A stretch of DNA of 64,000 bases. It comes from an uncultured delta proteobacterium (GTDB taxonomy: Bacteria; Desulfobacterota; Binatia; Binatales; Binataceae). The stretch is taken from contig CAVQAR010000024.1 of the NCBI GenBank assembly GCA_963710425.1, positions 85,935-149,934 on the forward strand, in the 5' to 3' direction. The position numbers were made by a program, and so were the translations under genes. Position 1 is the stretch's first letter; the number at the start of each line of letters is the position of its first letter. Below the pieces are notes generated by a model. It had not been told where the DNA came from, made no database searches, and was given only the letters and a program-made list of their open reading frames with translations. Positions 5,647 to 59,885 of this stretch are shown piece by piece.

Positions 5647-7856
5647 ATGGAGCGTGCCGACTCGATCGCGACGTCGGTCATTGACGGATCGGTCACCGCG
5701 GTCGAGAAGACGCCGCCGCCGCATATCGATAAGGACCTCACCTCGCCTGACCTGTTCCTCAATCGCGAGCTGACCTGGCTCGCGTTCAATCGGCGCGTTC
5801 TGCATGAGGCGGAGGACGAGCGCAATCCGCTGCTCGAGCGGCTCAAGTTCCTGGCGATTACGGCGTCCAACCTCGACGAGTTTTTCATGAAGCGCATCGG
5901 CGGCCTGAAGCAGCAGGTCGTCGCGGGGATGCATGAGCTGACGGTCGATGGACGCACGCCGCAACAACAGATCAATGAATGCTACACGGTGGTGCGCGAG
6001 ATCGAGCAGCGGCAGCGCGAGGTCGGTCCGCATATTCTGCGCGAGCTCGAGAACCACGGCATTCGCGTGCGGCTCTACGCCAGCCTTTCGGACGACGAGT
6101 GCAAGTCGGTTCGCGACTACTACTACAAGAATATTTTTCCGCTGGTGACGCCGCAGGCGATGGATCCGGCGCATCCGTTTCCGTTCGTGTCGAACCTGTC
6201 GCTCAATTTGCTGGTCACGGCGCGCTATCAGAACGATTCGGATCCGCTGATGGCGCGGGTGAAAGTGCCGGTCGGCTTCGGAATCCCGCGCTTCCTGCGA
6301 GTCGGCAAGCAAAATGATTTCGTGCGGCTCGAGGACGTCGTCGCGAACAATCTCGATCTGTTGTTTCCCGGGATGCTGATCGACTCGTACGAGCTTTTCC
6401 GCGTGACCCGCAACGCCAACACCGAGCGCGACGAGGACGAGGCCGACGACTTGCTCGCGCTGATCGAATCCGAGCTGCGCGACCGCCGTTTTGCGCCAAT
6501 CGTGCGGCTCGAAGTGCTCACCGGCATCAATCCGGTTCATCGCGGGATGCTCGCGGCCGAACTCGGGCTGGACGAACGCTCCGACGTGTTCGAAGTCGAT
6601 GGGATGCTCTCGATGCGCGACCTGGGCGAGCTGGCGTCGATCGACGAGCCCGCGCTGCACGATCCGCCGCATCATCCGGTGGACCATCCGCGCCTGACCG
6701 TTGGCCGCAGTATCTTCCACGTCATTCGCGATGCGGGTTCGTTCCTGCTGCTGCATCCGTACGAATCGTTCTCGACTTCGGTCGAGCGGTTCTTGCGCGA
6801 AGCTGCCGAGGACCCGAAGGTCCGCGCGATCAAGATGACGCTGTATCGCACTTCGCCCGACTCGAAGATCATCGGCTACCTTTGCGACGCCGCGCGCAAC
6901 GGCAAGCAGGTCGCCGTGGTGGTCGAGCTGAAGGCGCGCTTCGACGAGGCGGCGAATATCCAGTTCGCGACCGGCTCGAGGAATTCGGGATTCACGTGAC
7001 CTACGGCGTGGTCGGCCTTAAGACTCACAGCAAGGTGATCCTGGTTATTCGGCAGGACTACAACGGGCTGCGCCGTTACGCGCATATCGGGACCGGCAAC
7101 TATCATCCGGTGACCGCGCGATTCTACGCTGACTACGGGCTGCTGACTTGCGACGGCACTATCGGCGAAGACCTGACCGAGCTGTTCAACTACCTGACGA
7201 CCGGCTACATGCCGAATCGTCCGTATCGCAAAATCCTTCCCGCGCCGACTGTGCTCAAGCGCGCGCTGCTGGCGCGAATCGAGCGCGAAATCAAAGTGCA
7301 CTCGGCTGCGTCGCCGGGGCTGATTCAGTTCAAGATGAACGCGCTCGAGGACGTGGACATCACGCGGGCGCTATATCGCGCGTCGCAGGCGGGCGTGAAG
7401 GTCGATCTGATCGTGCGCGACACTTGCCGGCTGCGTCCGGGAATCCAGGGGCTCTCGGAAAGCGTGCGCATCGTTAGCATCGTCGGTCGATTCCTCGAGC
7501 ACGGGCGCGTTTACTATTTCCGCAACGGCGGCGCGGAGGAGTTTTTCATCGGCTCCGCCGATTGCATGAAGCGCAATCTCGAAAGCCGGGTCGAGGTCGT
7601 CGCGCCGGTCGAGGATCCTCAACTGCGCAAGGAATTGCGCGCCGTGCTCGACATCCAGTTGCGCCCGAATCGATGTCAGTGGGAAATGCAGCCCGACGGC
7701 ACTTACATCAAGACTGCAGCCGCAGACGCCGCGCCGGCTTGCCAGCAGGCAATGATCGATTTCGCCGAGAGGCGGCAGACCGAAGCGACCAAGGTCAAGC
7801 GGCGCCGCTCCAAAGGCTTCGCCCGCCGCGCCGTCCGCGAAAGAAACGACGAATAG
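5647..7856 (+). CDS. ppk: Polyphosphate kinase 1, one frame change near 6970
   Basis: LFLNRELTWLAFNRRVLHEAEDERNPLLERLKFLAITASNLDEFFMKR at the N-terminus. C-terminal half has GLKTHSKVILVIR...HIGTGNYH. The two halves are ORFs 5647..6999 and 6882..7856 in different frames. Confidence 0.9.
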
Positions 7857-15216: not shown

Positions 15217-15846
15217 TTATGCGCCGTTGCGAACTCGCTCGAAGAATTCCGCGAACAGCGGAAGATAAAGCGGATCCCGCTCGGGATGGTATTGCACACC
15301 GATTGCGTACGGATGCGATCGAAGCCGCGCCTGCTCGACTATCCCATCGCTCGCCGACCACGCCTCGACTTCGATTCCGTCGGCCAACCGCTCGAGCGCC
15401 TGGTGATGCGAGCTGTTCACCGCGCCGAATCGATGTATCGCCGTCGAGCTATGCCGCAGCGCCTGGATGTTCTCTCGCTCATAGTTGTCGTGGCCGGGAA
15501 TATCGATATGCAACGTACCGCCGAGCGCCACATTCAACACTTGCAAACCTCGACAGATTGCCAAAACAGGCTTTCCTAAAAACAGCATTTCGCGCGATGC
15601 CTTGAATTCCCATTCGTCGCGCGCGCAGTCGGTATCGACAATCAACGACGCGTCCGCGATCGCCTGCCGAAGATAGCTCGCCGAGATATCGCCGCCGCCG
15701 GTCAGCATCAACCCGTCCATCTGGGACAGATCCACCGGATGCAATCGAGCGTTATGCACCGCCAGATGCGGATAACGGCTGAATAGAAGTGTGAACCAAT
15801 GTTCGTCGCATTGGCGAATCCACGTTGCGATACTCGGCATTTCCAA
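15217..15846 (-). CDS. Class I glutamine amidotransferase, peptidase C26 (PuuD-like gamma-glutamyl hydrolase)
   Basis: GKPVLAICRGLQVLNVALGG (nucleophile Cys) and GVQYHPER (His/Glu). Confidence 0.8.
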   Translation of the reverse strand: MEMPSIATWIRQCDEHWFTLLFSRYPHLAVHNARLHPVDLSQMDGLMLTGGGDISASYLRQAIADASLIVDTDCARDEWEFKASREMLFLGKPVLAICRGLQVLNVALGGTLHIDIPGHDNYERENIQALRHSSTAIHRFGAVNSSHHQALERLADGIEVEAWSASDGIVEQARLRSHPYAIGVQYHPERDPLYLPLFAEFFERVRNGA

Positions 15847-15960
15847 CCCAGTTTGAAAAACTACGACAAAGCTCCCTCTTGAGACTACGGACGCATCGCG
15901 CTTGTCGCAAATTCACCGGAGCGAGCCCTTGCGACGAATCCGCGCGCAACCTAGTACTGT

Positions 15961-17697
15961 GTGACTCGCATGCAGATAGAAATGAAAATTCACGAATTCG
16001 CCTTGGCGACGACGCTCGCAGCGCTGTGCTGCTGCACCTCGCCCGGCCAGGTTTTCGCTGCGAACTCTCCCGCCGCGACCGCCAGTGCGTCACAAGTTGC
16101 CCCCGCCGGTGCCGCCGACATCAACGCTCTGATCGCTGCCGGTACGCTACCGGATTTGCGCTGGCCCAACTTCAGCGACTATTGCGACAGCGTCAAAAAA
16201 TTCTACGCCGCAGGCGGCGATTCTCTCGCGTGGATCCAGAACGGCAAAGCCAGCCCTCAAGCCGTCTCGATGATCCTTCAGTTTCAGCAGGCCGCGTTGA
16301 AAGGCCTCAACCCCGAGGACTATGACGCATCGCGATGGGACGCGCGTCTCGCCAAGCTCCAACCGACGGCGTCACCGAAGCCTACCGACGCCGATCTTGC
16401 ACATATCGATCTGGCGCTGACTGTTTCCGCGATGCGCTACATTTCCGATCTGCATATCGGAAGGGTCAACCCGCAGCATTTCAAGTTCGGCCTGACGGTC
16501 GGTCCCAAAAAGTATGACCTGGCCGACGAGCTGAGAACGCAAGTGCTTCCCGCGCCGGACATTGCCGCAGTGATCGCGAAAGTTGAGCCACCCTACGACG
16601 GCTATCGTCGGGCCGAAGGAGCGCTCGCCACATATTCGAAGATGGCGACCGCGGGTGACACCCCGCTCATCGCGGTGCCGCAAAAAGGTGTGCGTCCCGG
16701 AAGTACCTTCGCGTCGATGCCGCAACTAGTCGCACGATTGCGTCAGCTCGGCGATCTTCCTTCCACCGCCGACGCTCCTGCCGACTCGACGCTGTACAAA
16801 GGTCCCGTCGTCGATGCGGTGAAACATTTCCAGCATCGTCACGGCCTCGATACTGACGGCGTGTTGGGAAAGGGCACGGTGACTGAACTCAACACGCCGC
16901 TCAAAACGCGCGTGCAACAGCTCCAACTCACGCTTGAACGATATCGATGGATACCGCCGGACTTCCCCGAGCCGCCAATTATCGTCAACATTCCCGAATT
17001 CGAATTGCGTACCATGCGCCGCCAGCCGGCCAGCTACCTCACGATGAGAGTGGTCGTGGGCAAAGCGATGCGCACGCAGACGCCAGTCTTCGCGGATGAA
17101 ATGAAATATCTGATCTTCCGCCCCTATTGGCTGGTTCCGACCTCGATTCTGCGCAACGAGACGATCCCGAAGACTCGGCGCAATCCCAACTACCTGGGTG
17201 ATAATGGCTTCGAAGTAGTCGATCAAAGCGGCAACGTCGTCCCTTCATCGCCGGCCTCGGACGATGTCATAGATGGACTTCGTTCCGGCTCGTATCGGGT
17301 ACGGCAGAAACCCGGACCCAAGAATGCGCTCGGCCTGGTCAAGTTCATCTTCCCCAATCAATACAACGTGTACCTGCACAGCACGCCGGAACAGGAATTG
17401 TTCTCGCGGTCCCGTCGCGACTTCAGTCACGGATGTATCCGGGTTGAAAGGCCGGCCGACCTGGCAGCGTGGATACTGCGCGACCGGCCCGAATGGACGA
17501 TGGACAAAATACAGGCGGCAATGAAGACCGGGCCCGATAATGTTCAGGTGAATCTCAAAAAACCTATTCCAGTACTAATTCTCTATAGTACTGCAGTAGT
17601 CAATCCAGACGGCGAAGTAAGATTCTTCAACGACATCTATGGCTATGACAAGTCACTAGCCAAAGTATTGTCGAATGGCCCTCCATATCCGAGCTGA
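15961..17697 (+). CDS. L,D-transpeptidase (YkuD domain) with a peptidoglycan-binding domain, YcbB/LdtD-like
   Basis: PG_binding_1 motif FQHRHGLDTDGVLGKGT. Catalytic motif DFSHGCIRVERP. N-terminal signal/anchor. Confidence 0.85.
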   Translation: MTRMQIEMKIHEFALATTLAALCCCTSPGQVFAANSPAATASASQVAPAGAADINALIAAGTLPDLRWPNFSDYCDSVKKFYAAGGDSLAWIQNGKASPQAVSMILQFQQAALKGLNPEDYDASRWDARLAKLQPTASPKPTDADLAHIDLALTVSAMRYISDLHIGRVNPQHFKFGLTVGPKKYDLADELRTQVLPAPDIAAVIAKVEPPYDGYRRAEGALATYSKMATAGDTPLIAVPQKGVRPGSTFASMPQLVARLRQLGDLPSTADAPADSTLYKGPVVDAVKHFQHRHGLDTDGVLGKGTVTELNTPLKTRVQQLQLTLERYRWIPPDFPEPPIIVNIPEFELRTMRRQPASYLTMRVVVGKAMRTQTPVFADEMKYLIFRPYWLVPTSILRNETIPKTRRNPNYLGDNGFEVVDQSGNVVPSSPASDDVIDGLRSGSYRVRQKPGPKNALGLVKFIFPNQYNVYLHSTPEQELFSRSRRDFSHGCIRVERPADLAAWILRDRPEWTMDKIQAAMKTGPDNVQVNLKKPIPVLILYSTAVVNPDGEVRFFNDIYGYDKSLAKVLSNGPPYPS

Positions 17698-18591: not shown

Positions 18592-19541
18592 TTAGCTGGA
18601 ACGCAAGGGTGTTTCGCGCATGAAGCGGAGCGTGTCGTCCAAATCGCGGATGCCGGCATCGGAGCCCAGGCCCTGCGCGACCAACGCTGCCGCGGCATTG
18701 CCGAGTTTCATGCATTCCGCCGGCGTCCATCCGAGCCGCAGCGCGCGGATGAAACCTGCGCAATACGCGTCACCGCATCCCGACGTGTCGACGACCTCGA
18801 TGTTGTGCGCGGGCAGATGAACCCGCTCGCGCGCTGTCGTTAGCAAACTGCCGTCGCCGCCCATCGTCAGCACGACTCCGCCCACGCCGAGTTCGAGCAG
18901 TCGCATCGGCGGCGTGTTCCGGAGTGTGATGAGTCGGTCAGCTTGCAAGCTTGGTCGGCGTTGGGCATGAACCAATCGACGAACGGCAGGCACGGCTTCA
19001 GGATCGCGAGCAGTTTCGGCGAGCCTTCACTGAGGATGTCCATGCTGGTGGTCGCGCCGCCGTCGCGCGCGCGCCGCAAGATCTGCGATGCACCGTCGCG
19101 ACCCAGTCCGCGCATCGAATCGTTGCCGCCGAGATGCAGATGCGCCGCGCTTTCGATCAGCGGCCATGGCACGTCGTCGATCGAATAGACACTGTTAGCT
19201 CCGATCGCATGAAGCGCCGGCCGGTCTCCGTTTGCTCGAATTGGAAGAATGCTCGCGGAGGTTTGAACGCCGGGCTTGCGAATGACGTGGCCGGTATCGA
19301 CGCCGAAGCCGTTCAGCGCGCGGATCAGTACGTCGCCAAGAGCGTCGTCGCCGACCGCGCCGACGGTCGCGACCTCGAGTCCCAATTTCGCGAGGCCGAC
19401 CGCGGTGCCCGCCGCACTGCCCGCCGGCGCAAGCCGAATCTCGTCGAGCAGTACGCTGCCTTGTCCCTCGGGAATGTGCGTGACGTAGCGGCCAAGTATG
19501 TCGAGGACGTGCGCGCCGAGCGTCACGAAGATGTCGCTCAT
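18592..19541 (-). CDS. PfkB-family carbohydrate kinase, one frame change near 18935
   Basis: N-terminal part [14 protein letters not shown]...[16 protein letters not shown]-terminal signature [15 protein letters not shown] in another frame. The start overlaps the aldolase stop (ATGA). Confidence 0.8.
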
Positions 19542-20231
19542 CAGTGACTCGACTTTTTGCGCGCGATCTCGCGATCCTGTCGCGCGATCACTGCGGCGTG
19601 AAGTTGCGCGACGGTTTTTTCGGGGAGCACAGTCACCGGCCTGCCGGTCGCGAGCGCTTCCATATAGATGTGCGCGGATTTCTCGAGCAGCTCGACAAAG
19701 GTAAAAGTCTTGTCGAGGTCGGTGCCGATGCAAAGCGTGCCGTGGTTCTGAAGTATGTAGCAGTGGCATCGATTGGCGAGCTTGCGCGCGACGTTGTCGT
19801 GCAGTTCGCGCGTGCCTGACAGAGCGTACGGCACGACGTCGATGGTATCTGCCAATAGCCAGAGTGACTTCGTCGAACAGCGGCGGGATCGGCTCGTTCA
19901 GTATGCTGAGCGCGCTCGCGAAGGACTGATGCGTATGGATAACGGCGCTGACGTCGGCGCGCGCCTGGTAGGTCGCGACGTGCATCGGAGTTTCGATCGA
20001 CGGTTTGCGCTTGCCCTCGATCGGCGCGAGGTCGAAGTCCACTACGCAAATGTCTTCGACCGTCATCACGTCGTACTGAAGGCGCGTCGGCGTGACCGCG
20101 ATCGCATCTTCGCCATCAATCAGGATGGAGACGTTGCCCGCGCTGCCCGATTTGGATCCGAAGTAGCCGTCGGCCGACAGCCGCTGGCTTACCTGCAGGA
20201 CTCGCCGCTTGTAGTCGTCGTAGCGTCCCAT
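19541..20231 (-). CDS. Class II aldolase/adducin-family protein, one frame change near 19860
   Basis: SGSAGNVSI, PSIETPMH, AVIHTHQSFASAL (Zn His), then ILQNHGTLCIG in a second frame. Confidence 0.8.
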
Positions 20232-45728: not shown

Positions 45729-46921
45729 TCAGACCGGGTCGAGGCCGTCGAAGAGTGGAATTCCGAACGCGCTCTTGCCGAGAAATTCGAGCGTCTCGTC
45801 GCTGTCGAAAGGATGGTAGAGGCCGGCGCGAACGTCGCGGAACAGCCGTTCGAGCGGCAGCCGCTTGAAATACGACGACCCGCCGACGGCGCGAAGCGCC
45901 AGGTCCACCACGCGAACTGAATTCTCGACCGCGATCATCCGCGCGGCGACGGCCTTGCGCGACCAGCTCGCGGGATCGTCGGCGTCCATTTCCGCAGCCG
46001 CTTTCCACATCGCGGCGCGCGCACCTTCGATCAGCAAGTCCATCTCGCCGACTTTGTTGTAAACGGCCGGCAGATGACTCATCGGATTTTTGAGCGGGAA
46101 GCGCGTGCCGCTCGCGCATGAACTCGACCGTGAAATCGCGCGCGGACACGGCGATTCCGATGTACGGCGCGCCGATTGTGAATGGCGCCTTCGCAAACAC
46201 TTTCGTGATGCGTCCGCTCTTGGAGACCCGGCGCTGCAGCACCACGTCTGCGTCGGGCACGAACGCGTCCTTCAACTCGGAGCTGCGCGACGCGGTCGCC
46301 CGCATCCCCATCACATGCCAGTCGTCCTTGAAATTGAGGCCCGGTGTATCGCGCGGAGAAATGAAGCAGGTGATTATGGTGGGCCCGTGCGGTCCGTCTT
46401 CGCAGGTCGCCTCGAAAAAGAAGTGATCGATTGCCACACTCTGGGTGCCGAATATCTTGCGCCCGTTGACCAGCCATCCGCCATCGACCGGGCGCGCCTG
46501 CGTGCGCGGCCGCAGCGCGATGATCGCGTTGTCGGGCTCCGAGCCGGACCCGCCGCATATCAGGCTGCTCGGCCGCTATTCGGCGCAGCTTCTGCTCGAC
46601 ATTCGGTGCTTTGAACTTGCGATGCAAATCGACCAACAGCCCGACGGTGTTGAAGTGCATGTTGATCGCAAGCGCGGTCGCGCCGCATCCTTGCGCCAGA
46701 CGTTCCTGCGCCTTGATTCGCTCGAGCATCGTGGCGCCCAGTCCGCCGAGGCTCTCGGGAATGATCAGCCGCGTGTAGCCGCTCTCCTTCAGCCGTTCGT
46801 AGTTTTCGAACGGAAACGATCCCTCCTCGTCGTGGATGGCGGCGCGCTTGGCGAAGTCGTCGGCCATTTCGCCCGCCATATCGATGAAGCGCTGCTCACG
46901 CGCGGTATGAAGCTGATTCAT
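45729..46921 (-). CDS. Acyl-CoA dehydrogenase family protein, about two frame changes (near 46560 and 46110)
   Basis: The three ORFs 46079..46987, 45670..46437 and 45729..46196 carry consecutive ACAD-like segments (IIPESLGGLGAT; GSGSEPDNAI; GGSSYFKRLPLERLFRDVRAG). Confidence 0.75.
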
Positions 46922-46937
46922 TGGCTTGGCCCCGCCC

Positions 46938-47859
46938 TCAATCGTGTGCTGCCATGCCGGGAATCCACGCGTCGTAACCCGGCGCATAGTTGATGTTGCT
47001 CTGCGACGGATTGCGATTGACCAGCGGTCTCATGAAAAGCGGATGCCGCATGCTGCGCACCTCGTGCTCGATGGTGAACAGGGTCTCGCCGGTTTCAGGA
47101 TCGGCGAGGTCCTTGAATCGATACTGATGCTGATCGCTTTCCTCCGAGATGAGTCCCTTGTCGAGCAACTTCGGCGTACGGGCCAGAAAAATCCGCGACG
47201 TAAATCTGGATGTGATGGCCATCGTAGGGAGGGATCTCACGGTCGGTCTCGCGGAACATCAGATACTGTCCGATGCCTACTTCGACTCGCGCCACTCGAA
47301 TGCTTCCGTCGTCGTCCTTTGCGCTTTTGCCGGCGCCCTCTCCGCGCTGCAGCCTTGGCGCCCATCACGTTGCGGTAGAACCGCGCGATCCCGTCGGCGG
47401 TACCTTTCGGCACGTCGAATTCGACGTAAGCGATTCCTAACGTGATTCGGCCGAAGCGTTCATCGGGCGCGTAGCATCGGATGCGATTTCCCCACGGACA
47501 GGTGGCCTCGACGAACTCCTCGTGCTCGATGAAATCGAAGCGCGTCCCTTCGAGCCGTTTGCGAGTTCGTTCGAGCCGGCGAACCAGCGCCTCGCGATTG
47601 GGCACCACGATGCCGGTGTGACCGCGGAGAACCTGCGGCCGGGCTGGTCGGCAGATGGAACTGGCTGCGGCCGACGTTGACCCACATGTTGGTTGGCCCG
47701 GTCATTAGATAGGGATCGCGCGTCAGGCCTAGACCCGCGATGTAGAAAATGGTCGCCTGCTGCTGATCAGGGAACAGTTACGTTGACGTGTTCCAGCGCG
47801 ACGATGTTGCCGAGGTCTTCGACAGTTCGATTGAATCGACGCTCCATGGGAGCCTCCAT
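46938..47859 (-). CDS. VOC/glyoxalase-like protein of unknown function, at least four frame changes
   Basis: Consecutive segments (LEHVNVTVP; DQQQATIFYIAGLGLTRDPYLMTGPTNMWVNVGRSQFHLP; GITLGIAYVEFDVP; HHIQIYVADFSGPY; FTIEHEVRSMRHPLF) are each in a different frame. Confidence 0.5.
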
Positions 47860-48821: not shown

Positions 48822-51732
48822 ATGCCCGAAGATCTCGTCCAGTTTGAGGATTTTGTACTGAACCGCGGCGCCTATGAGCTGCGCCGGGGTGATGTCGTTA
48901 TTCCGCTCCAGCGGATTCCGCTCGAGCTGCTATGCCTGCTGGTCGAGCGCCGCGGACAGCTCGTTACGCGCGAGGAAATTCTCGAGCGGGTCTGGGGCAA
49001 GGGCGTCTTCGTCGATAGCGAGAACAGCATCAACACCGCGGTACGAAAAGTCCGGCGGGCCTTGAGCGACGATCCTGACGCCCCGCGCTTCGTCGTTACC
49101 GTGCCGGCCAGGGGTTATCGATTCGTCGCGGAGCTTCGCGGGCCGACGACAACTAGAGATGAGCAATTTCACGCGCGGCAGCCAGGCGTGATGGTGGGAC
49201 GCGAGCGCGAGGTGGCTTTATTGCTGAGCGGACTCGACGCGGCGGCTTCGCGGCGCGGGCGCCTGGTCCTGATTTCGGGCGAACCCGGCGTCGGCAAGAC
49301 GCGGATGGCGGATGAGGTTGCGGCCGCGGCTGAGGCAAAGCGGATGGCGGTGCTGGTCGGGCATTGCTCCGAGCACGACGAAGCCGTCGCGTATCTGCCA
49401 TTCGTGGAAATCCTGGAGAACTTCGTCGATCGCGCGTCGAATGCGGACACTCTTCGCGTTGCGTTGGGGGAGCAGGCGTCGGAGTTGGCGCGCTTGATTC
49501 CCAAACTCAAAAACATCCTGCCGGAGCTTCCGCCGCCGCTCGATTTGCCGCCGGCCCAGGCGCGACGCCACTTGTTCAATTGCTTTTTCGACTTCGTTGC
49601 TCGAATCGCTTCAAACCGACCGACTCTGATGATTCTCGAAGATCTTCACTGGGCCGACGATTCGACCTTGTCGCTGCTCGATCACCTGACGCAGCGGCCT
49701 ATCCGATTTGCCTCTGATGGTGATCGGCACCTACCGCGACGCCGAGGTCAATGTCACTCACGAGCTGGCAAAGACGCTGGAAGATTTACTCCGTGGGCGG
49801 CTTGCGACTCGCATCAGGCTCAAAGGCCTGCCACGCGATGAAGTGGCGGCGATGCTGAATAGCCTGAGCGGGAAATCGGCGCCGGCCACCGTAGTTGGCG
49901 AGATTTTCGCGGAGACTGAAGGCAATCCTTTCTTCGTCGAGGAATTGTTCCGCCATCTGGAGGAGGAGAATCGGCTGTACGATTCGGCGGGACAGTTTCG
50001 CTCCGAGCTCGAGATTGGCGAGCTGGACGCGCCGCCGAGCGTGAGGCTGGTCGTGGCGCGGCGACTGGCGCGGCTCAACGATCTGACACAGAAGATGCTC
50101 GCGACGGCGGCGGTGATCGGACGCTTCTTCAGTTTTGAAATTCTTCAGGCTTCGTGCGACTTCGATGCGGATTCGATTCTGGAGCGAGTCGAAGAAGCTG
50201 AAAAGGCCGGCGTGATTTTCTCGGTCGCGGAGAGTCCCAAGGTCCGGTTTGAGTTCTCTCACGAGCTTATTCGCCAGGCGGTGCTCGCCGGCTTGTCGGC
50301 GGCGCGACGCCAGCGGCTGCATCTCGAGGTCGCCGAAGCGATCGAGCGAACGTGTGCCGCCGGGTCGGCATCCACATTTGCCGGCAGCCTCGACGATCAC
50401 ATCACTGAACTGGCGCATCATTACGCGCATAGCGCCAACACCTGGCAGGCGGTGAAATATCTCCATCTGGCGGGCGAGCGCGCGGCGGCGTGCGGCGCGA
50501 TGGTCGAGGCGGAGCGTCAGTACCTGACCGCGCTCAAGCTCCTTGACGAATTGCCCGAAACGTCGGAACGAGACCGGCGCGAACTTGCCTTGCAGAGCCT
50601 GCTCGGTTCGGCCACTGCGGCCGTTAAGGGAATCGGCGCGCCTGAAAGAGAGCGCAGCCTTTTGCGGGCTCGCGATCTGTCACAACGCCTCGGGGAGCAA
50701 TCTCACGTGTTCCCGGTGCTCTGGCAGCTGTTCCATTTCCATGCACAGCGCGGTGAACTGCAAACCGCTCGGGAATACGCTGAACAGGCATTGGCAGTGG
50801 CCGAGAGTCAGTGCGACGCGGTGATGCTAGCGGATGCCCGAACCGCCCTCGGCGTCTGTCTCTTTTACATCGGCGACTTTGCTGCCTGCCGCAGGCAGTT
50901 CGAGCTCGCGCTCGCACAGGACATTCCTTTGCAAAAACGCCGCTATTTCGGCGAACGCGGGTTCGACGCGCTGGCAGGAGCGCTGAGCGCGCTGGCTGAG
51001 GGAATTCTTGGTTATCCGGACCGATGCTGCGTAGGAGTTGGCGAAGTTGTGAAGCGCGCGCGGACGCAGTCGAGCGTCCCTGACCTGGTGTTCGCGTTGG
51101 TAGCTTGTGGCCGGGGGCATCTTCTGGCCGGTAGTCCAAGCAGCGCCCAATCTTTGGCGGAAGAAACGATCACGCTGTCCGAGACCTACGGGTACGTCGA
51201 ACGCGCTGCATTGGGTAAATGTGTTCGAGGTGTCGCTCTCACAAGACAAGGAGAGCTCGATGAGGGTATAGCCTGCGTTCTCGAGGGACTCTCGGACTAT
51301 AGCGCGACCGGTGGCAGGCTCGGTCAGTCAGAGTTCTACAGCGCGCTTGCCGCAGCTTTCGGCAACGCAGGTCGAACTCAAGAGGGTTTGGAAGCGGTGG
51401 ACCGCGGACTGGCAATGGGCCGCGATGGTGGCGAGAGTTTCTATCGAGGCGAACTCTATCGCATAAGAGGGGAACTGATTCAGATCGAGGATCCGGCCAA
51501 TCCTGACGAGGTCGAGCGATTGTTTCGCACTGCGATCGATACTGCGTCCCGTCGGCAAGCCCGTTCATTTGAACTGCGCGCCACGACCAGCCTCGCGCGA
51601 TTGCTGGCGAAGCAAGGTCATCGCGACGAAGCGCGCGCGACGCTCGCCGAAATCTACAACTGGTTCACCGAGGGCTTCGATACCCCCGACCTCAAGGATG
51701 CCAGGACCCTGCTCGACGAGCTTAACGAATAG
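48822..51732 (+). CDS. Large transcriptional regulator: OmpR/PhoB-type winged helix + AAA ATPase + TPR, one frame change near 49706
   Basis: Trans_reg_C (ILERVWGK...VRKVRRAL...VPARGYRF). Walker A GEPGVGKT. LMILEDLHWAD. Long helical-repeat C-terminus. ORFs 48822..49841 and 49708..51732 are in different frames. Confidence 0.85.
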
Positions 51733-52884
51733 GATTGCCCGCAGAGATCTGCGCCCTCATCCCTTCTCTCGGCGTCGCGCAGGATATCGAGAGATATTCT
51801 CGCGTTCCAAACCGGAATCAAGTGGTCGGTAAGTTGGCACTCCCGGCGAGGTGAGATTGTGCGGATCGCTGTAAGTGCCTAATAGATAAGTCTGGAGGAG
51901 GAAGGGGCCCGGCGGCCCGACCGGTCTTCAAATCCCCTTCTGCGCGCCACGACAGATAATTCAGGGTTCGGTGGCTAGCAAAATCGTAGACTTCTCTGCT
52001 GCCAACGCTACCCTGGGCTACCCGGATGAAGGCTGGAGTGGGCACTCGGTGGGCAGTGCGGTAAGAATCCAAGGTCGGGGCAAGTTCAGTCCAAGACCAC
52101 GAAATAGCGGTCGACTCAGTAGTTTGCCCGCTGCGGAGGATTGGAGATCCAGTGCGTGGGTACCTCAGATAGGCGCCTCCCAGAGATTGGTTAGTTCGAA
52201 GAGGTGCAGCCAGCGCGCAATTCAGACCGCACGATCCGGAACGCCGGCGGCCCCCTAGCTAAGCTGACCACGCGCAGCGTATCGCCCGCTGGGTGGAGGC
52301 CGAGACTATTTGCCGTAAGCAGATGGGGTTCTCCTTCCAGGCCGTCGCCGAGCAGATTTCCCAGGTCGCCCGTGGCGAGGCGCAGCAGCTAATCCCATTT
52401 CACGCCTGGTATGGCCTTCCCGCCCGATTACAACATCAGGAGTCGTGCCGCCGCATCGCGGAAAATGAGCCCTTCGTTGAATTCGTTCGGCGCCGTCGGA
52501 CAGGTGTTCCCTGGTTTGGCTGGTTCAATTGATACCGAACGAACAGGCACTGACCGAATGCTACGTTGGTGAAGAGCACAGCCGTTATGAGAAGCGACCG
52601 AAACCTGCTCCATAGATCACCTTCAAACTGAACCGTCGGCTCAGATTTTGTCGCAATCGCTGAAATCCCGTTTACCGATTTGGCCCGCTGTTAACCATGG
52701 AGACCCTGAGAAACTTCGTGACTCTTTCAAGACTCCCCTTCAGAAAAGAGGTGGGCCGTGCTTTGCGTTGACGCACTGTGGTAGCTTTACCGCGCGCTCC
52801 AGCCTGACGCCGTTGGATGAGACTCGAAGGCTTCGTAACAACCGCTGGCGGGAGGTTCGCTCGCATCGTGGAGAGGGGGTCAGA

Positions 52885-55571
52885 TTGCCCGACAATCGAG
52901 AAGAAGCTGAATGGCTGACTCGCCGAGCGCGCGTCGATCCAAAGCTTCGCGGTTTGGACTGGGAGATCGTTCCATTCAAGCCCCATTTGGATCTGTCGAC
53001 GTGCACGCGGCACGCAGTCACTGAATTCCCGACGACCAACGGACCTGCTGACTACGCGCTCTTGCTCGACGGACGCATCGTCGGGATCCTTGAGGCGAAG
53101 AAGCTTTCGCTCGGGCCCCAGAACGTCCTGACCCAAGCCGAACGCTACGCGCGCGGTCTGCCGCCCGGCGAGTTCAACTTCGACGGCCGACGCGCGCCGT
53201 TCCTATACTCCACTAACGGCGAGGTGATCTGGTTCCACGACGTCCGCTCGCCTGCCAACCGCTCGAGGCGAATCGCGAGCTTCCATACGCCGGCGGCGCT
53301 GAGCGAAATGCTCGGGCGCGACTTCGACGTTGAGTGCGACCGGCTGAAGGCGCTACCAAACACCCACGGCTATCTGCGTCCATACCAACGAGAGGCCAAC
53401 GCCGCCATCGAGCGGGCCATAGCCGAGCGTAAGCGCGTGATGCTAGTCGCGATGGCGACGGGCACCGGCAAGACCTTCACGATGGTCAATGAGACGTACC
53501 GCCTGATGAAGTCCGGCGCCGCGCGCCGCGTCCTCTTCCTGGTCGATCGTCGCGCGTTGGCTGCGCAAGCGGTGCGTGAGTTCGCTTCGTTCGAAGCCGA
53601 GCCCGGGCTGAAGTTCGACAAGATCTACGAGGTCTATAGCCAGCGATTCCAACAGGACGACCTTGAACCGGGCGAGAAATTTGATCCCAAGGTGATGCCC
53701 TCCGGCCATCTGACTAACCCGAAACTTGGCGCCGCATTCGTCTACGTCTGCACCATCCAGAGCGCATGGCCCGGTATCTCTTTCCAGATCGAAGCTTCGA
53801 TCTCGGCGACGACGACGAAAAGGATCTGCCCGAGCCGTTGCCGATTCCGATCCATGCATTCGATCTGATCATCGCCGACGAATGCCATCGCGGATATACT
53901 GCCGCCGAGCAATCGCTCTGGCGCGACACGCTTGATCATTTCGACGCGATCAAGCTCGGCCTGACTGCGACACCGGCGAAGCACACAACCGCTTACTTCC
54001 GAGACATCGTTTATCGCTACGAATATCGCCGCGCAGTCGATGAAGGCTTTTTGGTCGACTACGATGCGGTCACGATCAAGTCCGGAGTGCTGATCAACGG
54101 CGTATTCCTGAAGGAAGGCGAGCAAGTCAGAACCATCGATACGAAGAGCGGCGCACAGAGCATGGACCAACTCGAGGACGAGCGTCAGTTCGAAGCGGCC
54201 GAAGTCGAAAAGAAAATTACCGTACCAGACACGAATTACAAAATCATCGAGGAAATAAAAAAGTACGCGCTGGATCATGAGCAACGCTACGGACGTTTTC
54301 CGAAGACGCTAATCTTTGCCGCTAATGACGTTCCCCACATTTCGCACGCTGACCAGCTCGTCAATCTCTGCCGCGACGCTTTCGGACGAGGCGATTCATT
54401 CGTTGCGAAGATCACCGGGACTGTAGACCGGCCGCTCCAACGGATCCGTGAGTTTCGCAATCGTCCCGCGCCGGCAATCGTCGTGTCTGTCGATCTGATG
54501 TCGACCGGCGTCGACATTCCAAATCTTGAGTTCATAGTGTTTCTGCGCCCCGTGAAATCACGAATTCTGTGGGAGCAGATGCTCGGGCGAGGAACTCGGC
54601 TCGGCACTCTCAGCCCGCCAAAGTCGCATTTCACGATCTTCGATTGTTTCGACGGAAGCCTGCTGAACTATTTCAAGAACGCATCCGCGTTCACTGAAGA
54701 TCCGCCCGACAAGCCGACCCGAACGATCGAGGAGATTATCCAGGCCATTTGGGATAATCGTGACCGAGTCTACAACGTCAAGTGTCTCAGTCGCCGCATG
54801 TTGCGGATCGACAAGGACATGTCGGGAAACGCGCGGGAGATTTTTGCCGCTTACGTTCCGGACGGCGACATGAAGGCCTTCGCCAACCGCTTACCTGCCG
54901 CCGTCACCGGGGACTTCACAGCGACCATGAGCCTTCTGCGGGACAAGAAGTTTCAGAAACTCCTGGTCAACTACGAACGCGCGCGACCGCATTTCATAGT
55001 CGCCCACGAGCTGACGGACGAAGTTACCTCTGGCCAACTGATCCGCGGCGCCGGTAACGAATACAAGCCGGAGGACTATCTCGCAGTGTTTTCTCGCTTC
55101 ATCCGGGACAACCCGGAACGTATTGAAGCGATTCGTATTCTCCTCAATCGGCCGAAAGACTGGAACACCGATGCCTTGTCTGAGTTGCGAAGAAAGCTAG
55201 CGTCTACTCCGGAACACTTCACAGTCGACAATCTCCAGAAGGCGCATGAAGCTCGCTACCATAAAGCGCTCGTCGACATCATTTCGATGGTCAAGCATGC
55301 CGCCAAAGAAGAGGAGCCGCTGCTGAGCGCCCCGGAGCGGGTCGAACGCGCGCTCAAGCGCATGGCCATAGGGCACAAGTTCACGGCCGAGCAGGAGAAA
55401 TGGTTCGAACGAATCCGCTCGCATCTGGTTGAGAATCTCTCGATCAGCCGTGACGACTTTGACATTGTGCCGGTTCTCTCCCATCACGGCGGATGGAAGC
55501 CAGCCGACCGAGCTTTCAATGGCAAGCTCAGTGGCCTGCTCTCGGAGATCAACGGAGCAATCGCGCAATGA
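52885..55571 (+). CDS. hsdR: Type I restriction enzyme R subunit (EcoEI-type C-terminal domain), one frame change near 53760; start uncertain (52648-52885)
   Basis: N-terminal nuclease-type region PADYALLLDGRIVGILEAKK. Helicase motifs MATGTGKT, ADECHRG and LTATP, plus VDLMSTGVDIP...QMLGRGTR. C-terminal FSRFIRDNPERIEAI region. Confidence 0.85.
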
Positions 55572-56968
55572 ACGAGAAGAACAACCATCATCCTGACGTA
55601 GTGCAGAAGTTATGGGGCTTCTGCCACGTGCTGCGTCACGACGGCATCGGATACGGCGACTACATCGAGCAGATAACTCTTCTGCTTTATCTCAAGATGG
55701 CCGACGAAAAGGGCGTCAAACTGCCAAAGGATTGCGGATGGAGGATTCTCCGCAGCAAAAGCGGCACCGACCTCCTCGATAGCTACATCGATATGCTACG
55801 CACGCTCGGCAAGGCGCCGGGTCTTATCGGCGACATCTACGCTGGCGCCCAATCGCGATTCAAGAAGCCGGCAAGCCTCAAGCAGCTTATCGGCACGATC
55901 GACGAGACCGAGTGGACCAGCCTCGACGTCGACGTGAAAGCCGCCGCCTACGAGGGATTGCTCGAGAAGGCCGCCAGCGAGGGCAAGAAAGGTGTCGGCG
56001 CAATTTTCACGCCCCGCATCCTCATCAAATCGATCGTCAGGTGTATGAAGCCGGACCCGCGCGTGCACAAGGAATTCACTATCTGCGATCCAGCGTGCGG
56101 CACCGGGGGGTTCCTCGTGTGCTCCTATGAATGGTTGATAGGGCAGACGCGCGGAGCGCTCGACAGAGAGACCGCAGCCCGCGTCAGAAGCAAGACTTAC
56201 TTCGGACAGGACATCGTCGAGCTTTCCCGTCGTCTCACCTTGATGAACTTGACGCTGCATACGCTGGAGCCTCAGATAAAGCTTGGCGATTCGATATACG
56301 AGGTGCCCGACTCTCGCCGCTTCGACGTTGTCCTGACCAATCCGCCGTTTGGCACCAGAGGCGCCAACCAAGCACCCGACCGCGATGACTTCACCGTTGC
56401 GACCTCGAACAAACAGCTTAACTTTCTCCAACACGTAATGACCATCCTCAAGCCGGGCGGCCGCGCCGCCGTGGTCTTGCCGGACAATTGCCTGTTCGCA
56501 GACCAGGCCGGCGAGGTCTTCGAGATTTTGACCCAGGACACTGACCTGCACACCGTTCTGCGCCTACCGCGTGGCACGTTCAGCCCTTACAGCCCGGGCG
56601 TTAAGTGCAACGTGATCTTCTTCACGAAGGGCGCACCGACCGAGAACGTTTGGATTTACGACGGTCGCACCAACGTTGAATGGATCACCAAGAAGGACAG
56701 GCCGCTTACGCCGGAGCACTTCGCTGAGTTCGAGCAATGCTTCGGCGGGGATCCCGACGGCCGCGCGAAGCGTAAGCCGGAACAGTCGAAGGAAGATCGA
56801 TGGCGCCGCTTCCATATCATCAGCGAGATCAAGGAGCGCGAGTTCAAGCTCGACGGCTTCAAGTGGCTTAAGGATGAATCGCTCGAAGACTCGGACGAGA
56901 TGCCCGAGCCCGAAGAGCTAGCGACCGATGCCATTGCTGAGTTGGAGAGTGCCGTCGAGGATTATTAG
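55568..56968 (+). CDS. hsdM: Type I restriction-modification N6-adenine DNA methyltransferase
   Basis: HsdM_N-like N-terminus (LWGFCHVLRHDG...YIEQITLLLYLKM). Motif I DPACGTGGFL. Motif IV LTNPPFG. The ATG overlaps the hsdR stop. Confidence 0.9.
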   Translation: MNEKNNHHPDVVQKLWGFCHVLRHDGIGYGDYIEQITLLLYLKMADEKGVKLPKDCGWRILRSKSGTDLLDSYIDMLRTLGKAPGLIGDIYAGAQSRFKKPASLKQLIGTIDETEWTSLDVDVKAAAYEGLLEKAASEGKKGVGAIFTPRILIKSIVRCMKPDPRVHKEFTICDPACGTGGFLVCSYEWLIGQTRGALDRETAARVRSKTYFGQDIVELSRRLTLMNLTLHTLEPQIKLGDSIYEVPDSRRFDVVLTNPPFGTRGANQAPDRDDFTVATSNKQLNFLQHVMTILKPGGRAAVVLPDNCLFADQAGEVFEILTQDTDLHTVLRLPRGTFSPYSPGVKCNVIFFTKGAPTENVWIYDGRTNVEWITKKDRPLTPEHFAEFEQCFGGDPDGRAKRKPEQSKEDRWRRFHIISEIKEREFKLDGFKWLKDESLEDSDEMPEPEELATDAIAELESAVEDY

Positions 56969-57031
56969 GATGTCTCCTGGCGCAGCAACTTTATTAGGCG
57001 CCGAGCACCACACTCGGATTCGCGGACTTAG

Positions 57032-57298
57032 TTGGCCGAGGAGCTGTTCAGGCTTGCCGATGCGATCGAAAAGCGCGTCGCGGCGGCGACAGCTCGCACC
57101 GAAAAGCTCACGCAATCGATTCTCGCCAAAGCATTTCGTGGTGAGCTCGTTCCGACCGAGGCGGAACTGGCCCGTGAAGAGGGACGTGAGTACGAGTCGG
57201 CTTCTGCCCTTCTGACACGAATTCGCTCTGAGGTCGCCAGCAAGACTGTGAGGAAGGAGGAGCGAAAGGGCAGTGCCCCGGCTGCGCTACTATCCTGA
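57032..57298 (+). pseudogene. hsdS: Remnant of a type I specificity subunit: only the conserved C-terminal helix is left
   Basis: KLTQSILAKAFRGELVPTEAELAREEGREYESASALLTRI matches the conserved HsdS C-terminal tail. No target-recognition domain is present between 56969 and 57031. Confidence 0.6.
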
Positions 57299-58353
57299 CC
57301 AGTTTCCGGCCTTCATGGGTGCCGCCTTCGGCCAGCCCACCGAAATCAATTTCACCTGGGCGGAACTGGGCAAATCAGCAGTCACTGTAGGGCGACAGAA
57401 CTGGGTCGATGTCCTTCGCTTTGGGCCCTTTTCCGTATTCGAATTGACTTGGAGGGTCGCAATGCTTTGGGCGAACCTTCGCGAAGACCCAAGTGGGCTC
57501 CTGGTCCCGTCTGAAGCGTTCGTCAACCTCGATCCGTCGGAGAGCGGCGCAATCTCTTACTTTCTCGGGAACTGCTTCACCAAACTCGTGGTAGAGAATC
57601 TCTTCGGCGTCCCTTGGCTCATGCACCTGGATGTGTATCGCCGCAGCCTGGGCATCGTGCTGACTTCCAATAGTCGCCCGGACTTCGTCGGCCTCGATCT
57701 GCAAAGACAATGGGCGGTAGTCGAAGCCAAAGGACATATGCTTAGAATGCGGCGCGACACAATGCAAAAAGCGAAGCGCCAGACCCGTTCTGTGAGGCGG
57801 ATCGCTGGTCAGAATCCCGCGCTCAGGACTGCCGTTGGAGTCTGGTTCTCCAAGACCAGCGGCACGAACGCTAAGGTCTGGGACCCTCGTGGTTACGACC
57901 GTGGAGCAGAAGATTTCGACATAAATACAGACCATTTTCTGAGGCTTTACTACGAACCGCTGATTGACCGGACTGGCTTCCTCCAGATTCGTCCGAGCCG
58001 GCGCGCACCGAGCAAGAAACTGCGCCGCCCTCTTCCGCTTCAGCCGTTCGATGCCGAGATCATTCTCGACAATGACATCGTCGCCGGGTACGCGCGCGGC
58101 GCTCCACCTGGGAGAGGTGGTGATCGCGCCGAGGGTCGGCATCGAAGATTCCATTCTCGCGGCGCTTGCGACATTGGAAGAAAGCGAGAGAGGCGAGGCA
58201 CGCCGCGATATTACTGACAACCTGCAAATACTCGTCGAGAAGCGCCGCACGTCTGACATTTCTGAAACGCCAGCCGATGGGGTGACGGTGGAACTCGGAC
58301 CCGCGTGGCGCCCCGAAAACATGCGGCGAGAACCCGCAGATCGTAGCCGTTGA
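57273..58353 (+). CDS. Uncharacterised protein with a PD-(D/E)xK nuclease-like motif, one frame change near 58100
   Basis: GTG start after AGGAAGGAGGAG. RPDFVGLDLQRQWAVVEAKGH gives PD...ExK spacing. The C-terminal part continues in the frame of ORF 57964..58353. Confidence 0.55.
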
Positions 58354-58478
58354 CCAGATGTCTAGAACTTGTACACGGGAAAGATGAAATCGGCCGCTAG
58401 GTCGATCGCGAATATGGAGAAATGCCAAGTTCCTGGCGACCTGCAAGCCGATAGAAGCTGGAGGTAAGCGAACGAACC

Positions 58479-59690
58479 GTGCCAAATACATCCAGAAACG
58501 CGCCCTGTCACTGTGGTAGCGGGAAGAAGTACAAAAGGTGTCATGGTAAAGGTTCGCCTATGTCTACCGTACACGGGCCAGCACCGATTCGAATGCCGCC
58601 GCAAGGCACAACGCAAAATCTTCCCGCCAAGGGCTTGCCGGGTCTGCCTCAATACCTCACGGTGGTTTTCGAGTATCGCGATCCTGCTGATCCCCGGAAC
58701 CGCGCAGGACCTCAGGGGCAGCCGGGAAAATATGACGTGGTGTTCACGCTAAATCGACCGGGCTTTTCGCTGCAACCTGAATACAATTCAAGCTTCGCGG
58801 ATGGACTAAAAGGAACATCGCATCTAGCCATAGGTAGGCCGGCGCATCCGTCGGTTGACCCGACCATCGACCGAATTCGCTTAGACGCTGTAGTGGAATC
58901 AGAGCGCTTCGTTTTTACTGGCCATCCTGACGCCGGCGGATTTCTCTCGAAGATGATGGGGAGCTGTTATGCCAATGGGTTTTTGGACGCGCACCGTAAG
59001 GCGTTCCGAGCCATAGCTCCCATTCTAAGCAACTGGTCCCTGCAATTAGACATTCCCGTTTCAATTTATCAAGTCGACCTGACCGAAGTAGCGTCCGGCG
59101 CGAAGAGAATGACATTCAATCCGCCCTTTCAGACCTCTCCTTTGTTGACGCGACCAGATGTCGCGCTGAAACCAGAATTTCGCGGTTACGCTAGCCTCTA
59201 CCGAGAAGCACTCAACAGCAACAGCCCCGTTTATCAATTTCTATGTTACTTCAAGATAATAGAGAGCGCGCGCAAACGACGAGAGCGGCTCGCGGGTGAG
59301 GCACGCAATCGAGTCGAGTCTTTTGCCCGACCCCCTGAAGTGTTCCCGTCCGATCCGGAAGGATTATTTCCCTGGCTGAACGCGCTATTCACCGTCAGAC
59401 CGCCTGTTTGGGACGAGATGGTGATCGAGAGCCTGCTCATGCCTGAGGTCATCGGAAAGAAATTTGGAACCATCATCGAACGGCAGCTAATCCCGTTGCG
59501 GACGAGCGTTGCTCATGCTCTTTTCGAGAGCGCCGAAATGAGCCTGTCCGTTGACGACTATATTAGCCACGAAAGAGTAAACAGATTTCTTCCCGTCGCC
59601 AAATGCATGGTTCGGCGAATGCTCAAGAATGAATTTGCCGCAGACTTTCTCGCTCACTTGCCAGATCCCACTCCAACCGGAAGCGCATGA
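58479..59690 (+). CDS. SEC-C-motif protein with an uncharacterised C-terminal domain carrying an Rx4H motif
   Basis: N-terminal APCHCGSGKKYKRCHG (SEC-C Zn motif, nt 58500-58547). C-terminal helical region YQFLCYFKIIESARKRRE...LIPLRTSVAHAL (R341-H346, nt 59499-59516). Intact 403-aa ORF. Confidence 0.65.
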   Translation: MPNTSRNAPCHCGSGKKYKRCHGKGSPMSTVHGPAPIRMPPQGTTQNLPAKGLPGLPQYLTVVFEYRDPADPRNRAGPQGQPGKYDVVFTLNRPGFSLQPEYNSSFADGLKGTSHLAIGRPAHPSVDPTIDRIRLDAVVESERFVFTGHPDAGGFLSKMMGSCYANGFLDAHRKAFRAIAPILSNWSLQLDIPVSIYQVDLTEVASGAKRMTFNPPFQTSPLLTRPDVALKPEFRGYASLYREALNSNSPVYQFLCYFKIIESARKRRERLAGEARNRVESFARPPEVFPSDPEGLFPWLNALFTVRPPVWDEMVIESLLMPEVIGKKFGTIIERQLIPLRTSVAHALFESAEMSLSVDDYISHERVNRFLPVAKCMVRRMLKNEFAADFLAHLPDPTPTGSA

Positions 59691-59853
59691 CTGGTTTTGC
59701 GCGAGAGCCTGAAGGTTGGTGGGCGGAAGACGGAAACCACACCGCGCGGAATGTCCGAGTCCTAGACCAACGCACCGGATCTACAGTCCGTGGCGCGCAG
59801 AATTCGACAATGAATAGAAGAGCAATTTCCTGACTTGGACTGAACTTGGGCCG

Positions 59854-59885
59854 CGAGAGGGGTGGGATTCAAACCCACGAGGGAC
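59854..59885 (-). other. tRNA 3'-end-like remnant (T-arm plus acceptor strand), not a complete tRNA
   Basis: The minus strand reads GTGGG-TTTGAAT-CCCAC-CCCTCTC-G. This gives a 5-bp T stem, a 7-nt loop with C56 replaced by T, and a 7-nt acceptor strand. No matching 5' acceptor, D arm or anticodon arm lies upstream. Confidence 0.35.

Follow-up and report, generated by a model that had tools for sequence, protein, structure and literature searches.

Two accessory genes behind a type I restriction-modification operon that has lost its specificity gene

A 64,000-nucleotide stretch of DNA from an uncultured delta proteobacterium (contig CAVQAR010000024.1, positions 85,935 to 149,934; hereafter the window) contains a block of about 7 kb in which the remains of a type I restriction-modification (R-M) locus are followed by two open reading frames (ORFs), ORF5 and ORF6. 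What are these two genes, and do they belong together? The original prediction, made from the letters alone, took the block for a decaying R-M locus and its last two genes for a possible two-gene nuclease/effector module. On balance, our analysis favors a horizontally acquired type I R-M operon that lost its recognition subunit and carries two accessory genes at its 3′ end. The observation was partly confirmed and its interpretation partly supported. The predicted gene order (hsdR, hsdM, a tail of hsdS, an ORF with a PD-(D/E)xK motif and an ORF with SEC-C and Rx4H motifs) is real, as evidenced by the ORFs and their family matches:

52885..55571, plus strand: hsdR, in two frames (Pfam, PADLOC and NCBIfam matches)
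55568..56968, plus strand: hsdM, open frame (PADLOC MTase_I, Pfam N6_Mtase)
56962..57034, no strand: filler of about 75 bp at the deletion junction (blastn against L003 and L002, and reading of the junction)
57035..57298 (ORF 57032-57298), plus strand: hsdS remnant of about 88 codons, the conserved C-terminal helix region (PADLOC, NCBIfam, tblastn)
57273..58353 (frame-corrected), plus strand: ORF5, PD-(D/E)xK-motif family (homologs, tblastn, alignment, AlphaFold)
58440..58478, plus strand: leader of ORF6, about 40 nt, containing GGAGG (DNA alignment with L001 and L008)
58479..59690, plus strand: ORF6, a SEC-C/MauJ protein of 403 aa, intact (Pfam, family alignment, AlphaFold)

Loci fetched for comparison carry L numbers.

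Loss of the specificity gene hsdS

The closest view of an undamaged operon comes from a metagenomic contig (L003) that encodes hsdR (898 aa), hsdM (484 aa), hsdS (512 aa) and an ORF5 homolog (359 aa). Window and L003 are 91% identical in DNA over 53007-56961. Similarity ends at 56961 and restarts at 57037, and 1313 bp of L003 (6452-7765) are reduced to about 75 bp in the window. In L003 these 1313 bp hold the last ~18 codons of hsdM and codons ~1-425 of hsdS, including both target-recognition domains. A deletion of about 1.3 kb took the end of hsdM and all of hsdS but its last ~88 codons, which agrees with the prediction that only a tail of hsdS is left. This tail covers positions 383-459 of 461 in the PADLOC model Specificity_I and 383-460 of 461 in NCBIfam PRK09737, and tblastn with intact HsdS proteins recovered residues 422-513 only; neither of the two target-recognition domains of an HsdS remains. 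A tblastn search of the 64-kb window found no second hsdS. Both the type I methyltransferase and the nuclease need HsdS for DNA recognition (PMC3874165). Without a specificity subunit neither methylation nor restriction by this enzyme is therefore possible, and the R-M part is, as had been proposed, non-functional unless a compatible hsdS exists elsewhere in the genome.

hsdM had been described as intact and coupled to hsdR through ATGA. The coupling is present, with the hsdM start overlapping the hsdR stop as ATGA at 55568-55571, and the open frame encodes an N6-adenine methyltransferase (PADLOC MTase_I, 4e-154; Pfam N6_Mtase, 6e-56). Its C-terminus is not intact: compared with L003, the window HsdM lacks the last ~18 residues of its relatives because the hsdS deletion starts inside the hsdM 3′ end.

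hsdR is split by a frame change, as first noticed. One ORF (52648-53868) encodes HSDR_N and the start of ResIII, the next (53766-55571) the rest of ResIII, Helicase_C and EcoEI_R_C, which leaves the nuclease and the superfamily 2 motor present and distributed over two frames. The two pieces cover positions 240-502 and 535-1118 of PRK11448 (NCBIfam). Using the intact 898-aa HsdR of L003 as tblastn query, residues 10-296 fall in frame 1 and residues 296-899 in frame 3, and DNA alignment reveals a 2-bp insertion at ~53760 (CCAGAGCGC in the window against CCAG--CGC in L003). The gene likely starts at TTG 52885 and not at 52648, as that codon is preceded by GGAGAGGGGG and Met1 of the relatives aligns there.

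Gene order and stop/start overlaps resemble those of the EcoKI and EcoAI/EcoEI type I systems, as do the architecture of HsdR (HSDR_N-ResIII-Helicase_C-EcoEI_R_C), the N6_Mtase domain of HsdM and the C-terminal conserved region of HsdS. The window differs from these systems in lacking both HsdS target-recognition domains and the HsdM tail and in its broken HsdR frame, and the intact relatives of its operon differ in having a fourth cistron. Assignment to type IB, suggested by the name EcoEI_R_C, was not adopted. The best model is PRK11448, and neither it (176 + 384 against 729 bits) nor the EcoAI/FtnUII HsdR model (103 + 159 against 550 bits) reached its NCBIfam equivalog cut-off. In two relatives mobility genes adjoin the operon: a large serine recombinase with DUF2924 in L003 (1-1304), and an IS3 element, a tyrosine integrase and an HTH/M78 pair in L002 (3769-7989). 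Their presence would fit transfer of the operon on integrative elements.

The second frame break of the block lies in ORF5. As read, this gene spans 57273-58217; a 1-bp insertion near 58106 (GCTCCACCTGG in the window, GCTCC-GCTGG in L002; tblastn split at 58108-58115) shifts it from frame 3 to frame 1. The full-length equivalent, 57273-58353, encodes 359 aa and its near homologs 357-359 aa. The window copy would be either inactivated by a recent 1-bp insertion or apparently broken through an assembly error.

The same ambiguity applies to genes outside the block. On the plus strand, ppk is broken mid-domain at ~6969-6990 (PP_kinase_C_1 positions 2-92 in ORF 5647-6999, positions 86-164 in ORF 6882-7856). 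On the minus strand, a pfkB kinase fused to an aldolase domain is broken at ~18894-18926 into ORFs 18867-20231 and 18592-18993, with profile positions 14-201 and 217-297 in separate ORFs. Two more minus-strand genes look split, an acyl-CoA dehydrogenase (45729-46987), whose longer ORF holds the N domain only, and a C26 peptidase (15217-16093), whose profile match begins at position 56. About one break per 8-10 kb predicts about one in the 7-kb block, a rate that is enough to account for both block breaks by chance. Moreover, the ratio of nonsynonymous to synonymous substitution rates (dN/dS) is low 3′ of the breaks (0.05 in hsdR, 0.21 in ORF5), and the breaks are therefore very recent or artefacts; hsdR and hsdM show values of 0.05-0.08 (hsdM 0.08). 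These data suit a locus that is less decayed than it looks, with hsdR and ORF5 full-length in the cell, their breaks being assembly or sequencing errors, and only hsdS lost. Against this, neither indel lies within a long homopolymer, the 2-bp AG duplication in hsdR resembles true slippage, and a genome rich in recent pseudogenes would look identical; split ppk and pfkB would reflect either such a genome or an error-prone assembly. We regard the question as evenly balanced. The frame breaks in hsdR and ORF5 are thus doubtful evidence of decay. Of the decay originally proposed, only the hsdS deletion is firm; it is structural and independent of the frame-break question, while the frame change in hsdR could stem from the assembly. 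In assemblies of this kind, nearby housekeeping genes should be checked before a frame break is taken as a sign of pseudogenization.

ORF5, a fourth cistron behind hsdS

In L002, L003, L058 and L059 the start of ORF5 overlaps the end of an intact hsdS by 26 nt. Every copy of the closest ORF5 clade (57-90% identity) for which upstream sequence is available has this 26-nt hsdS overlap, and the window repeats it with the hsdS stump. In operons of this type ORF5 regularly forms the fourth cistron, with its translation coupled to that of hsdS.

More distant members have other partners. A member with 46% identity (L004) lies 49 nt past hmaC in an Hma system (HmaB, 6.6e-133; HmaC, 1.8e-140). This system consists of the helicase HmaA, the methylase HmaB and the ATPase HmaC; there is none in the window, and it is relevant here just as a second host of the ORF5 family, whose member follows hmaC as ORF5 follows hsdS. 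The L004 operon also holds a small PemK-toxin pair (4263-4873) between hmaB and hmaC, upstream of the ORF5 homolog; downstream there is another PemK as well as a SocA/Panacea antitoxin gene. Upstream DNA was sufficient at 113 ORF5 loci, and at 57 of them a gene on the same strand ends within 150 nt. Of 60 linked upstream genes scanned, recognizable ones were Methylase_S (4), PLDc_2 (3), UvrD helicases (2), DUF4041/T5orf172 (2) and Eco57I (2), with further cases of N6_N4_Mtase, EcoRII-C, DUF499, Shedu SduA_C and others. Wider neighborhoods contain integrases, methyltransferases, BREX parts, OLD/AbiEii-type ATPases and transposases. Overall, the ORF5 family attaches promiscuously to the ends of nucleic-acid defence operons and, in this lineage, is fixed in the type I operon. 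In L006 (8001-9579) and L007 (2168-3746) a distant relative of 310 aa (36% identity) overlaps a downstream conserved ORF of 232 aa, which has no Pfam match and lies in a non-defence neighborhood; this pair may be a different two-gene arrangement of that ORF5 branch.

The family comprises 107 clusters at 90% identity and 204 metagenomic stretches, with proteins of ~310-400 aa from many phyla. Across 41 aligned members, with identities as low as 23%, the invariant residues are E57, R61, D87, E90, H118, P136-D137, G140, E151-x-K153, G154, Q170, D204-P205 and Y227. The PD-(D/E)xK motif recognized in the original prediction is therefore an invariant PD...ExK signature, whose residues are also present in the window copy. 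For P0121, a 90%-identical homolog, AlphaFold returned a confident model (pLDDT 91, pTM 0.93) with helix 88-111, strands 115-118, 138-141 and 147-156, helix 161-171 and strand 174-177. E90 lies on the first helix, D137 opens a strand, and E151/K153 sit on the strand after it, followed by the helix that carries Q170. This is the alpha-beta-beta-beta-alpha-beta order of the PD-(D/E)xK core, judged by the order of secondary-structure elements alone and not by 3D coordinates. dN/dS in ORF5 is 0.18-0.26.

ORF5 thus shares with the PD-(D/E)xK superfamily the D...ExK residues, the acidic residue on the upstream helix, the predicted core order and a set of weak structural neighbors: its Foldseek list is dominated by PD-(D/E)xK enzymes, namely CinB, McrC, influenza PA-N, NucS/EndoMS, SfsA, EcoO109I and VRR_NUC. 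Unlike known members, it shows no significant profile or Foldseek similarity to any of them, and its additional N- and C-terminal regions resemble no known protein. Searches of Pfam, NCBIfam, PADLOC, PHROGs and PDB sequences gave no match for ORF5. Taken together, motif and model indicate that ORF5 is likely a PD-(D/E)xK nuclease, and by these searches its family appears undescribed, absent from named defence systems and from solved folds.

ORF5 would then supply methylation-based defence systems with a second nuclease activity, as an endonuclease that depends on Mg2+. In the plainer version it would serve as an independent extra restriction nuclease. Alternatively, by analogy with PrrC, it might be a latent effector that is held by the R-M complex and freed when a phage inhibits the complex, and this version is the most interesting because ORF5 is co-translated with HsdS. 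PrrC is an accessory effector inside a type I hsd operon, a back-up that the R-M complex keeps in check (PMC3874165, PMC12707154). Like PrrC of EcoprrI (and RloC), ORF5 is an accessory gene that forms part of a type I operon and shares its transcript. PrrC, however, combines an ABC-ATPase with an anticodon nuclease and is encoded between hsd genes, whereas ORF5 follows hsdS and has a PD-(D/E)xK motif, no ATPase domain and no sequence similarity to PrrC.

ORF6, a single-gene cassette, and the alternatives

ORF6, the larger passenger, is intact, as originally read; it encodes 403 aa and is the one gene of the block that is clearly undamaged. Its closest copy, in L001, is 92% identical in protein. 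DNA similarity between the window and L001 (91% nucleotide identity) is confined to 58474-59692, beginning 5 nt ahead of the ORF6 start codon and ending 2 nt past its stop, and the window, L001 and L008 have the ~40-nt leader in common. L001 (1-20800) is a dense defence island. It encodes a large serine recombinase, an HKD+Snf2 protein, a DUF4760 protein, a type IIG enzyme (975 bits), a type II methyltransferase together with a HATPase_c_3 protein, and a DRT UG5-nitrilase reverse transcriptase (874 bits), and it also holds an IS3 element. Elsewhere, ORF6 homologs lie beside a type II methyltransferase and an HTH gene (L139) or beside AbiJ and a PIN/MazE pair (L144). No partner gene is common to the eight ORF6 contexts. 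ORF6 forms a single-gene cassette, complete in itself and independently mobile.

A second copy, 76% identical in protein, was found behind the same operon type in L008 and L009. Immediately before it lie 340 bp in which hsdR codons 5-71 are fused to hsdS codons ~459-499 of the same type I family; an ancestor therefore had hsdR-hsdM-hsdS-ORF6 without ORF5. This ancestor lost nearly the whole R-M system through one internal deletion while ORF6 was kept, and the window repeats the theme with a different deletion. In L008 (7677-7999), as in L009, the scar forms a 67-codon fusion ORF, and the islet sits between two acyl-CoA dehydrogenase paralogues. The dN/dS of ORF6 is 0.16 between the window and L001 and 0.06 between L001 and L008; these low values mean that the gene is maintained by purifying selection. 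No relatives of ORF6 were detected in IMG/VR viral contigs, PLSDB plasmids or PHROGs, and those of ORF5 were limited to one viral contig (IMG/VR) and two weak plasmid matches (PLSDB). A phage or plasmid origin of either gene was dismissed on these grounds.

At its N-terminus ORF6 has the SEC-C zinc knuckle that had been predicted (residues 6-24; 33.5 bits against a threshold of 20.4), with C10, C12, C21 and H22, and this part matches the SEC-C peptides of SecA and YchJ in the PDB. The knuckle is followed by a low-confidence linker, a beta-rich domain (~55-215; invariant D71, S114-H115 and D191) and an alpha-helical MauJ domain (232-385), in an AlphaFold model with a pLDDT of 84. Residues 238-383 match positions 2-116 of 116 in the MauJ family (PF17419) with 61.3 bits, above the threshold of 28. 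Invariant residues of the helical domain are Y241-R242-E243, R267, R341, H346, D359, C376 and R379. The family is large, with 344 clusters at 50% identity and E<1e-30, its named sources are mostly Acidobacteriota, and many members have no SEC-C knuckle. In an exhaustive profile search for distant MauJ relatives, the best 150 matches were full-length family members throughout. Pfam, NCBIfam, PADLOC and PHROGs gave SEC-C and MauJ only, PADLOC recognizing the SEC-C motif alone, to E2-type models at E ~2e-4. As the original prediction had it, neither passenger is claimed by a named defence system.

The Rx4H motif is R341-x4-H346, invariant in 41 sequences and often LRNxIAH, which conforms to the Rx4-6H motif of HEPN RNases. 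Support from the fold is missing: Foldseek matches contained no HEPN protein, no Pfam HEPN family matched at E<=10, and hhalign of ORF6 against the Abi_C protein AbiJ gave a probability of 0.2%, although the sensitivity of such searches is low for short helical folds, so that this result lowers the claim rather than excludes it. Like the HEPN RNases of Abi, toxin-antitoxin and CRISPR-accessory systems, ORF6 has R-x4-H in an all-helical domain and is single-gene, mobile and defence-adjacent. It differs from them in that the motif lies inside a long predicted helix and not clearly at a helix start, in its large conserved beta domain, which has no HEPN parallel, and in the lack of a profile or structure match. 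We therefore propose only tentatively that the MauJ domain could be a HEPN-like metal-independent RNase with a zinc-knuckle tether. Most likely, ORF6 would act alone as an effector triggered by stress or infection. The SEC-C knuckle suggests tethering to nucleic acid or the ribosome, which is the weakest step of this proposal. The name MauJ derives from the methylamine-utilisation cluster; the helical domain passes the family cut-off and relatives are publicly so named, whereas ORF6 has no mau genes nearby, adds an N-terminal SEC-C and occurs in R-M/defence or solitary contexts. A literature search on MauJ retrieved no usable open paper, and the name carries no known mechanism.

Do ORF5 and ORF6 work as a pair? 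They lie on the same strand, 125 bp apart, and both families were found in defence neighborhoods elsewhere (ORF6 in about half of its contexts, where it adjoins defence or toxin-antitoxin genes), which bears out the expectation that such passengers also sit on defence loci of other genomes. Nevertheless, ORF6 relatives accompany ORF5 relatives in none of 46 genome, 80 metagenome and 6 individually fetched loci (~130), nor do ORF5 relatives appear in any of the eight distinct ORF6 contexts. ORF5 is coupled to hsdS rather than to ORF6, the similarity of ORF6 to L001 ends at the gene borders, and L008 shows the hsdS remnant followed by ORF6 without ORF5. A two-gene nuclease/effector module riding on the R-M locus is thus very improbable and was rejected, absence of co-occurrence being the result that had been named beforehand as speaking against it. 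What brings them together here is the operon type, whose tail serves as a site for both. Two further readings concern one gene each. ORF5 could be a stand-alone, modification-dependent (type IV-like) or solitary restriction nuclease that tends to land near methyltransferase systems with no functional link to the type I complex. Type IV enzymes often adjoin type I loci (see PMC12707154), members of the ORF5 family sit behind highly varied partners, and roughly half of the loci lack an upstream gene in tight linkage. Yet the 26-nt hsdS overlap is kept across closest-clade relatives that are merely 57-90% identical, which argues for co-translation and for selection on the linkage, and we consider this view of ORF5 rather unlikely. 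ORF6, in turn, could have no part in defence and be a MauJ-like protein with a housekeeping or regulatory role in Acidobacteriota, placed beside an R-M remnant by chance. Its family is large (344 clusters), it is under purifying selection, it was missing from viral contigs, plasmids and PHROGs, PADLOC recognized it through SEC-C only, and four of its eight contexts are ordinary metabolic or translation neighborhoods. We consider this explanation rather unlikely, about as probable as the HEPN-like reading, in light of other data: ORF6 has no conserved neighbor or fixed locus, similarity limited to the gene between unrelated contexts points to gene-level mobility, its GC content is the lowest of the block (53.7%), two independent junctions (window and L008) place it behind the same type I hsdS, and other copies adjoin a type IIG enzyme with a DRT, a type II methyltransferase, or AbiJ with PIN/MazE.

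Several points weigh against reading the block as an R-M operon with two accessory defence genes. None of the profile libraries searched connects either protein with nucleases or HEPN families. Foldseek matches were not significant for either protein (best E 0.16 against the PDB for ORF5; 0.05 against the PDB and 0.03 against BFVD for ORF6). Distant relatives of ORF5 often have no recognizable defence neighbor, and half of the eight ORF6 contexts are plain housekeeping (the flanks of L008, L010, L011 and L140), so that defence is no more than a candidate role of ORF6. HsdM and HsdR might still be served by another hsdS in the genome, although the 64 kb contain none and the tail of HsdM is gone as well. 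If the frame breaks are artefacts, hsdR and ORF5 could be intact in the organism and the locus less decayed.

To our knowledge, R-M operons with built-in accessory effectors are known mainly from PrrC. What is new here is a conserved fourth type I cistron that differs from PrrC and belongs to an undescribed PD-(D/E)xK family, which also trails Hma and other defence genes. The SEC-C/MauJ protein, for which no structural relatives were detected, is a second cargo at the same docking position. In two independent lineages the MauJ-type gene survived the deletion of R-M genes and stayed under purifying selection, which points to a value of its own. A more far-reaching possibility would be that the hsdS 3′ end of this lineage is a docking point for single-gene effectors (ORF5, ORF6 or both) that outlive the R-M genes. 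ORF6 would then be the founder of a class of single-gene immune effectors, novel at the level of the fold and abundant in Acidobacteriota, and ORF5 a PrrC-like back-up nuclease that senses inhibition of methylation-based systems (type I R-M, Hma). As a whole we consider this unlikely. If either protein were an anti-phage effector, it would found a new family of single-gene defences in soil Acidobacteriota, whose phylum has been little studied, and offer a first functional handle on the MauJ domain. Independent of that, the locus retains a modest but real interest with two undescribed families, one of them repeatedly kept after R-M loss.

Borders and composition of the block

The lower GC content of the block was verified. 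It amounts to 57.3% against 60.1% in the rest of the window and is the minimum among equal-sized windows (0.4% as low or lower), with the lowest value inside the block in ORF6. The flanks of the block contain three short features:

59850..59880, minus strand: tRNA-3′-end-like hairpin (sequence only; weak)
52081..52095, minus strand, with an inverted partner at 59834-59848: 15-mer CTTGGACTGAACTTG (exact match)
51938-51951 and 59789-59802, inverted pair: 14-mer CGTGGCGCGCAGAA (exact match)

The block had been described as bounded by gene-free debris on the left and a tRNA-3′-end-like remnant on the right. In the left gap (51733-52884) there is indeed no Pfam-recognizable ORF, which as a boundary is weak evidence. 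An ORF of 79 codons in this gap (52293-52532, plus strand) reads like a helix-turn-helix fragment (GFSFQAVAEQISQVARGE; no Pfam match) and may be the relic of a recombinase or regulator. In the right gap, the minus strand from 59880 to 59850 contains a T-arm-like hairpin, GTGGG TTTGAAT CCCAC, followed by seven nucleotides, CCCTCTC (GTGGGTTTGAATCCCAC CCCTCTC). Its loop has a T at the position of tRNA C56, a residue that is near-universal in tRNAs. ARAGORN and Rfam called nothing at the hairpin, and neither a second copy in the window or any fetched locus nor a direct repeat was found. It could be the relic of an attachment site, for which the evidence is weak.

The inverted 14-mer and 15-mer pairs bracket the block, and each occurs at two sites only in the 64 kb. 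The chance expectation for such inverted matches is 0.06 for the 15-mer and 0.06-0.12 over both pairs. They are not colinear and thus no simple terminal inverted repeats. A definition of the island by a tRNA or attachment site was dropped, given that there is no tRNA, Rfam match or direct repeat, just short non-colinear inverted matches. A scan for sigma-70 promoters and terminators yielded nothing above shuffled background. Immediately to the left of the block lies what looks like one large regulator with an OmpR-type Trans_reg_C domain, AAA_16 and TPR repeats, divided on the plus strand between two overlapping frames (48822-49841 and 49708-51732), probably by a further frame break of the kind seen in ppk and pfkB.

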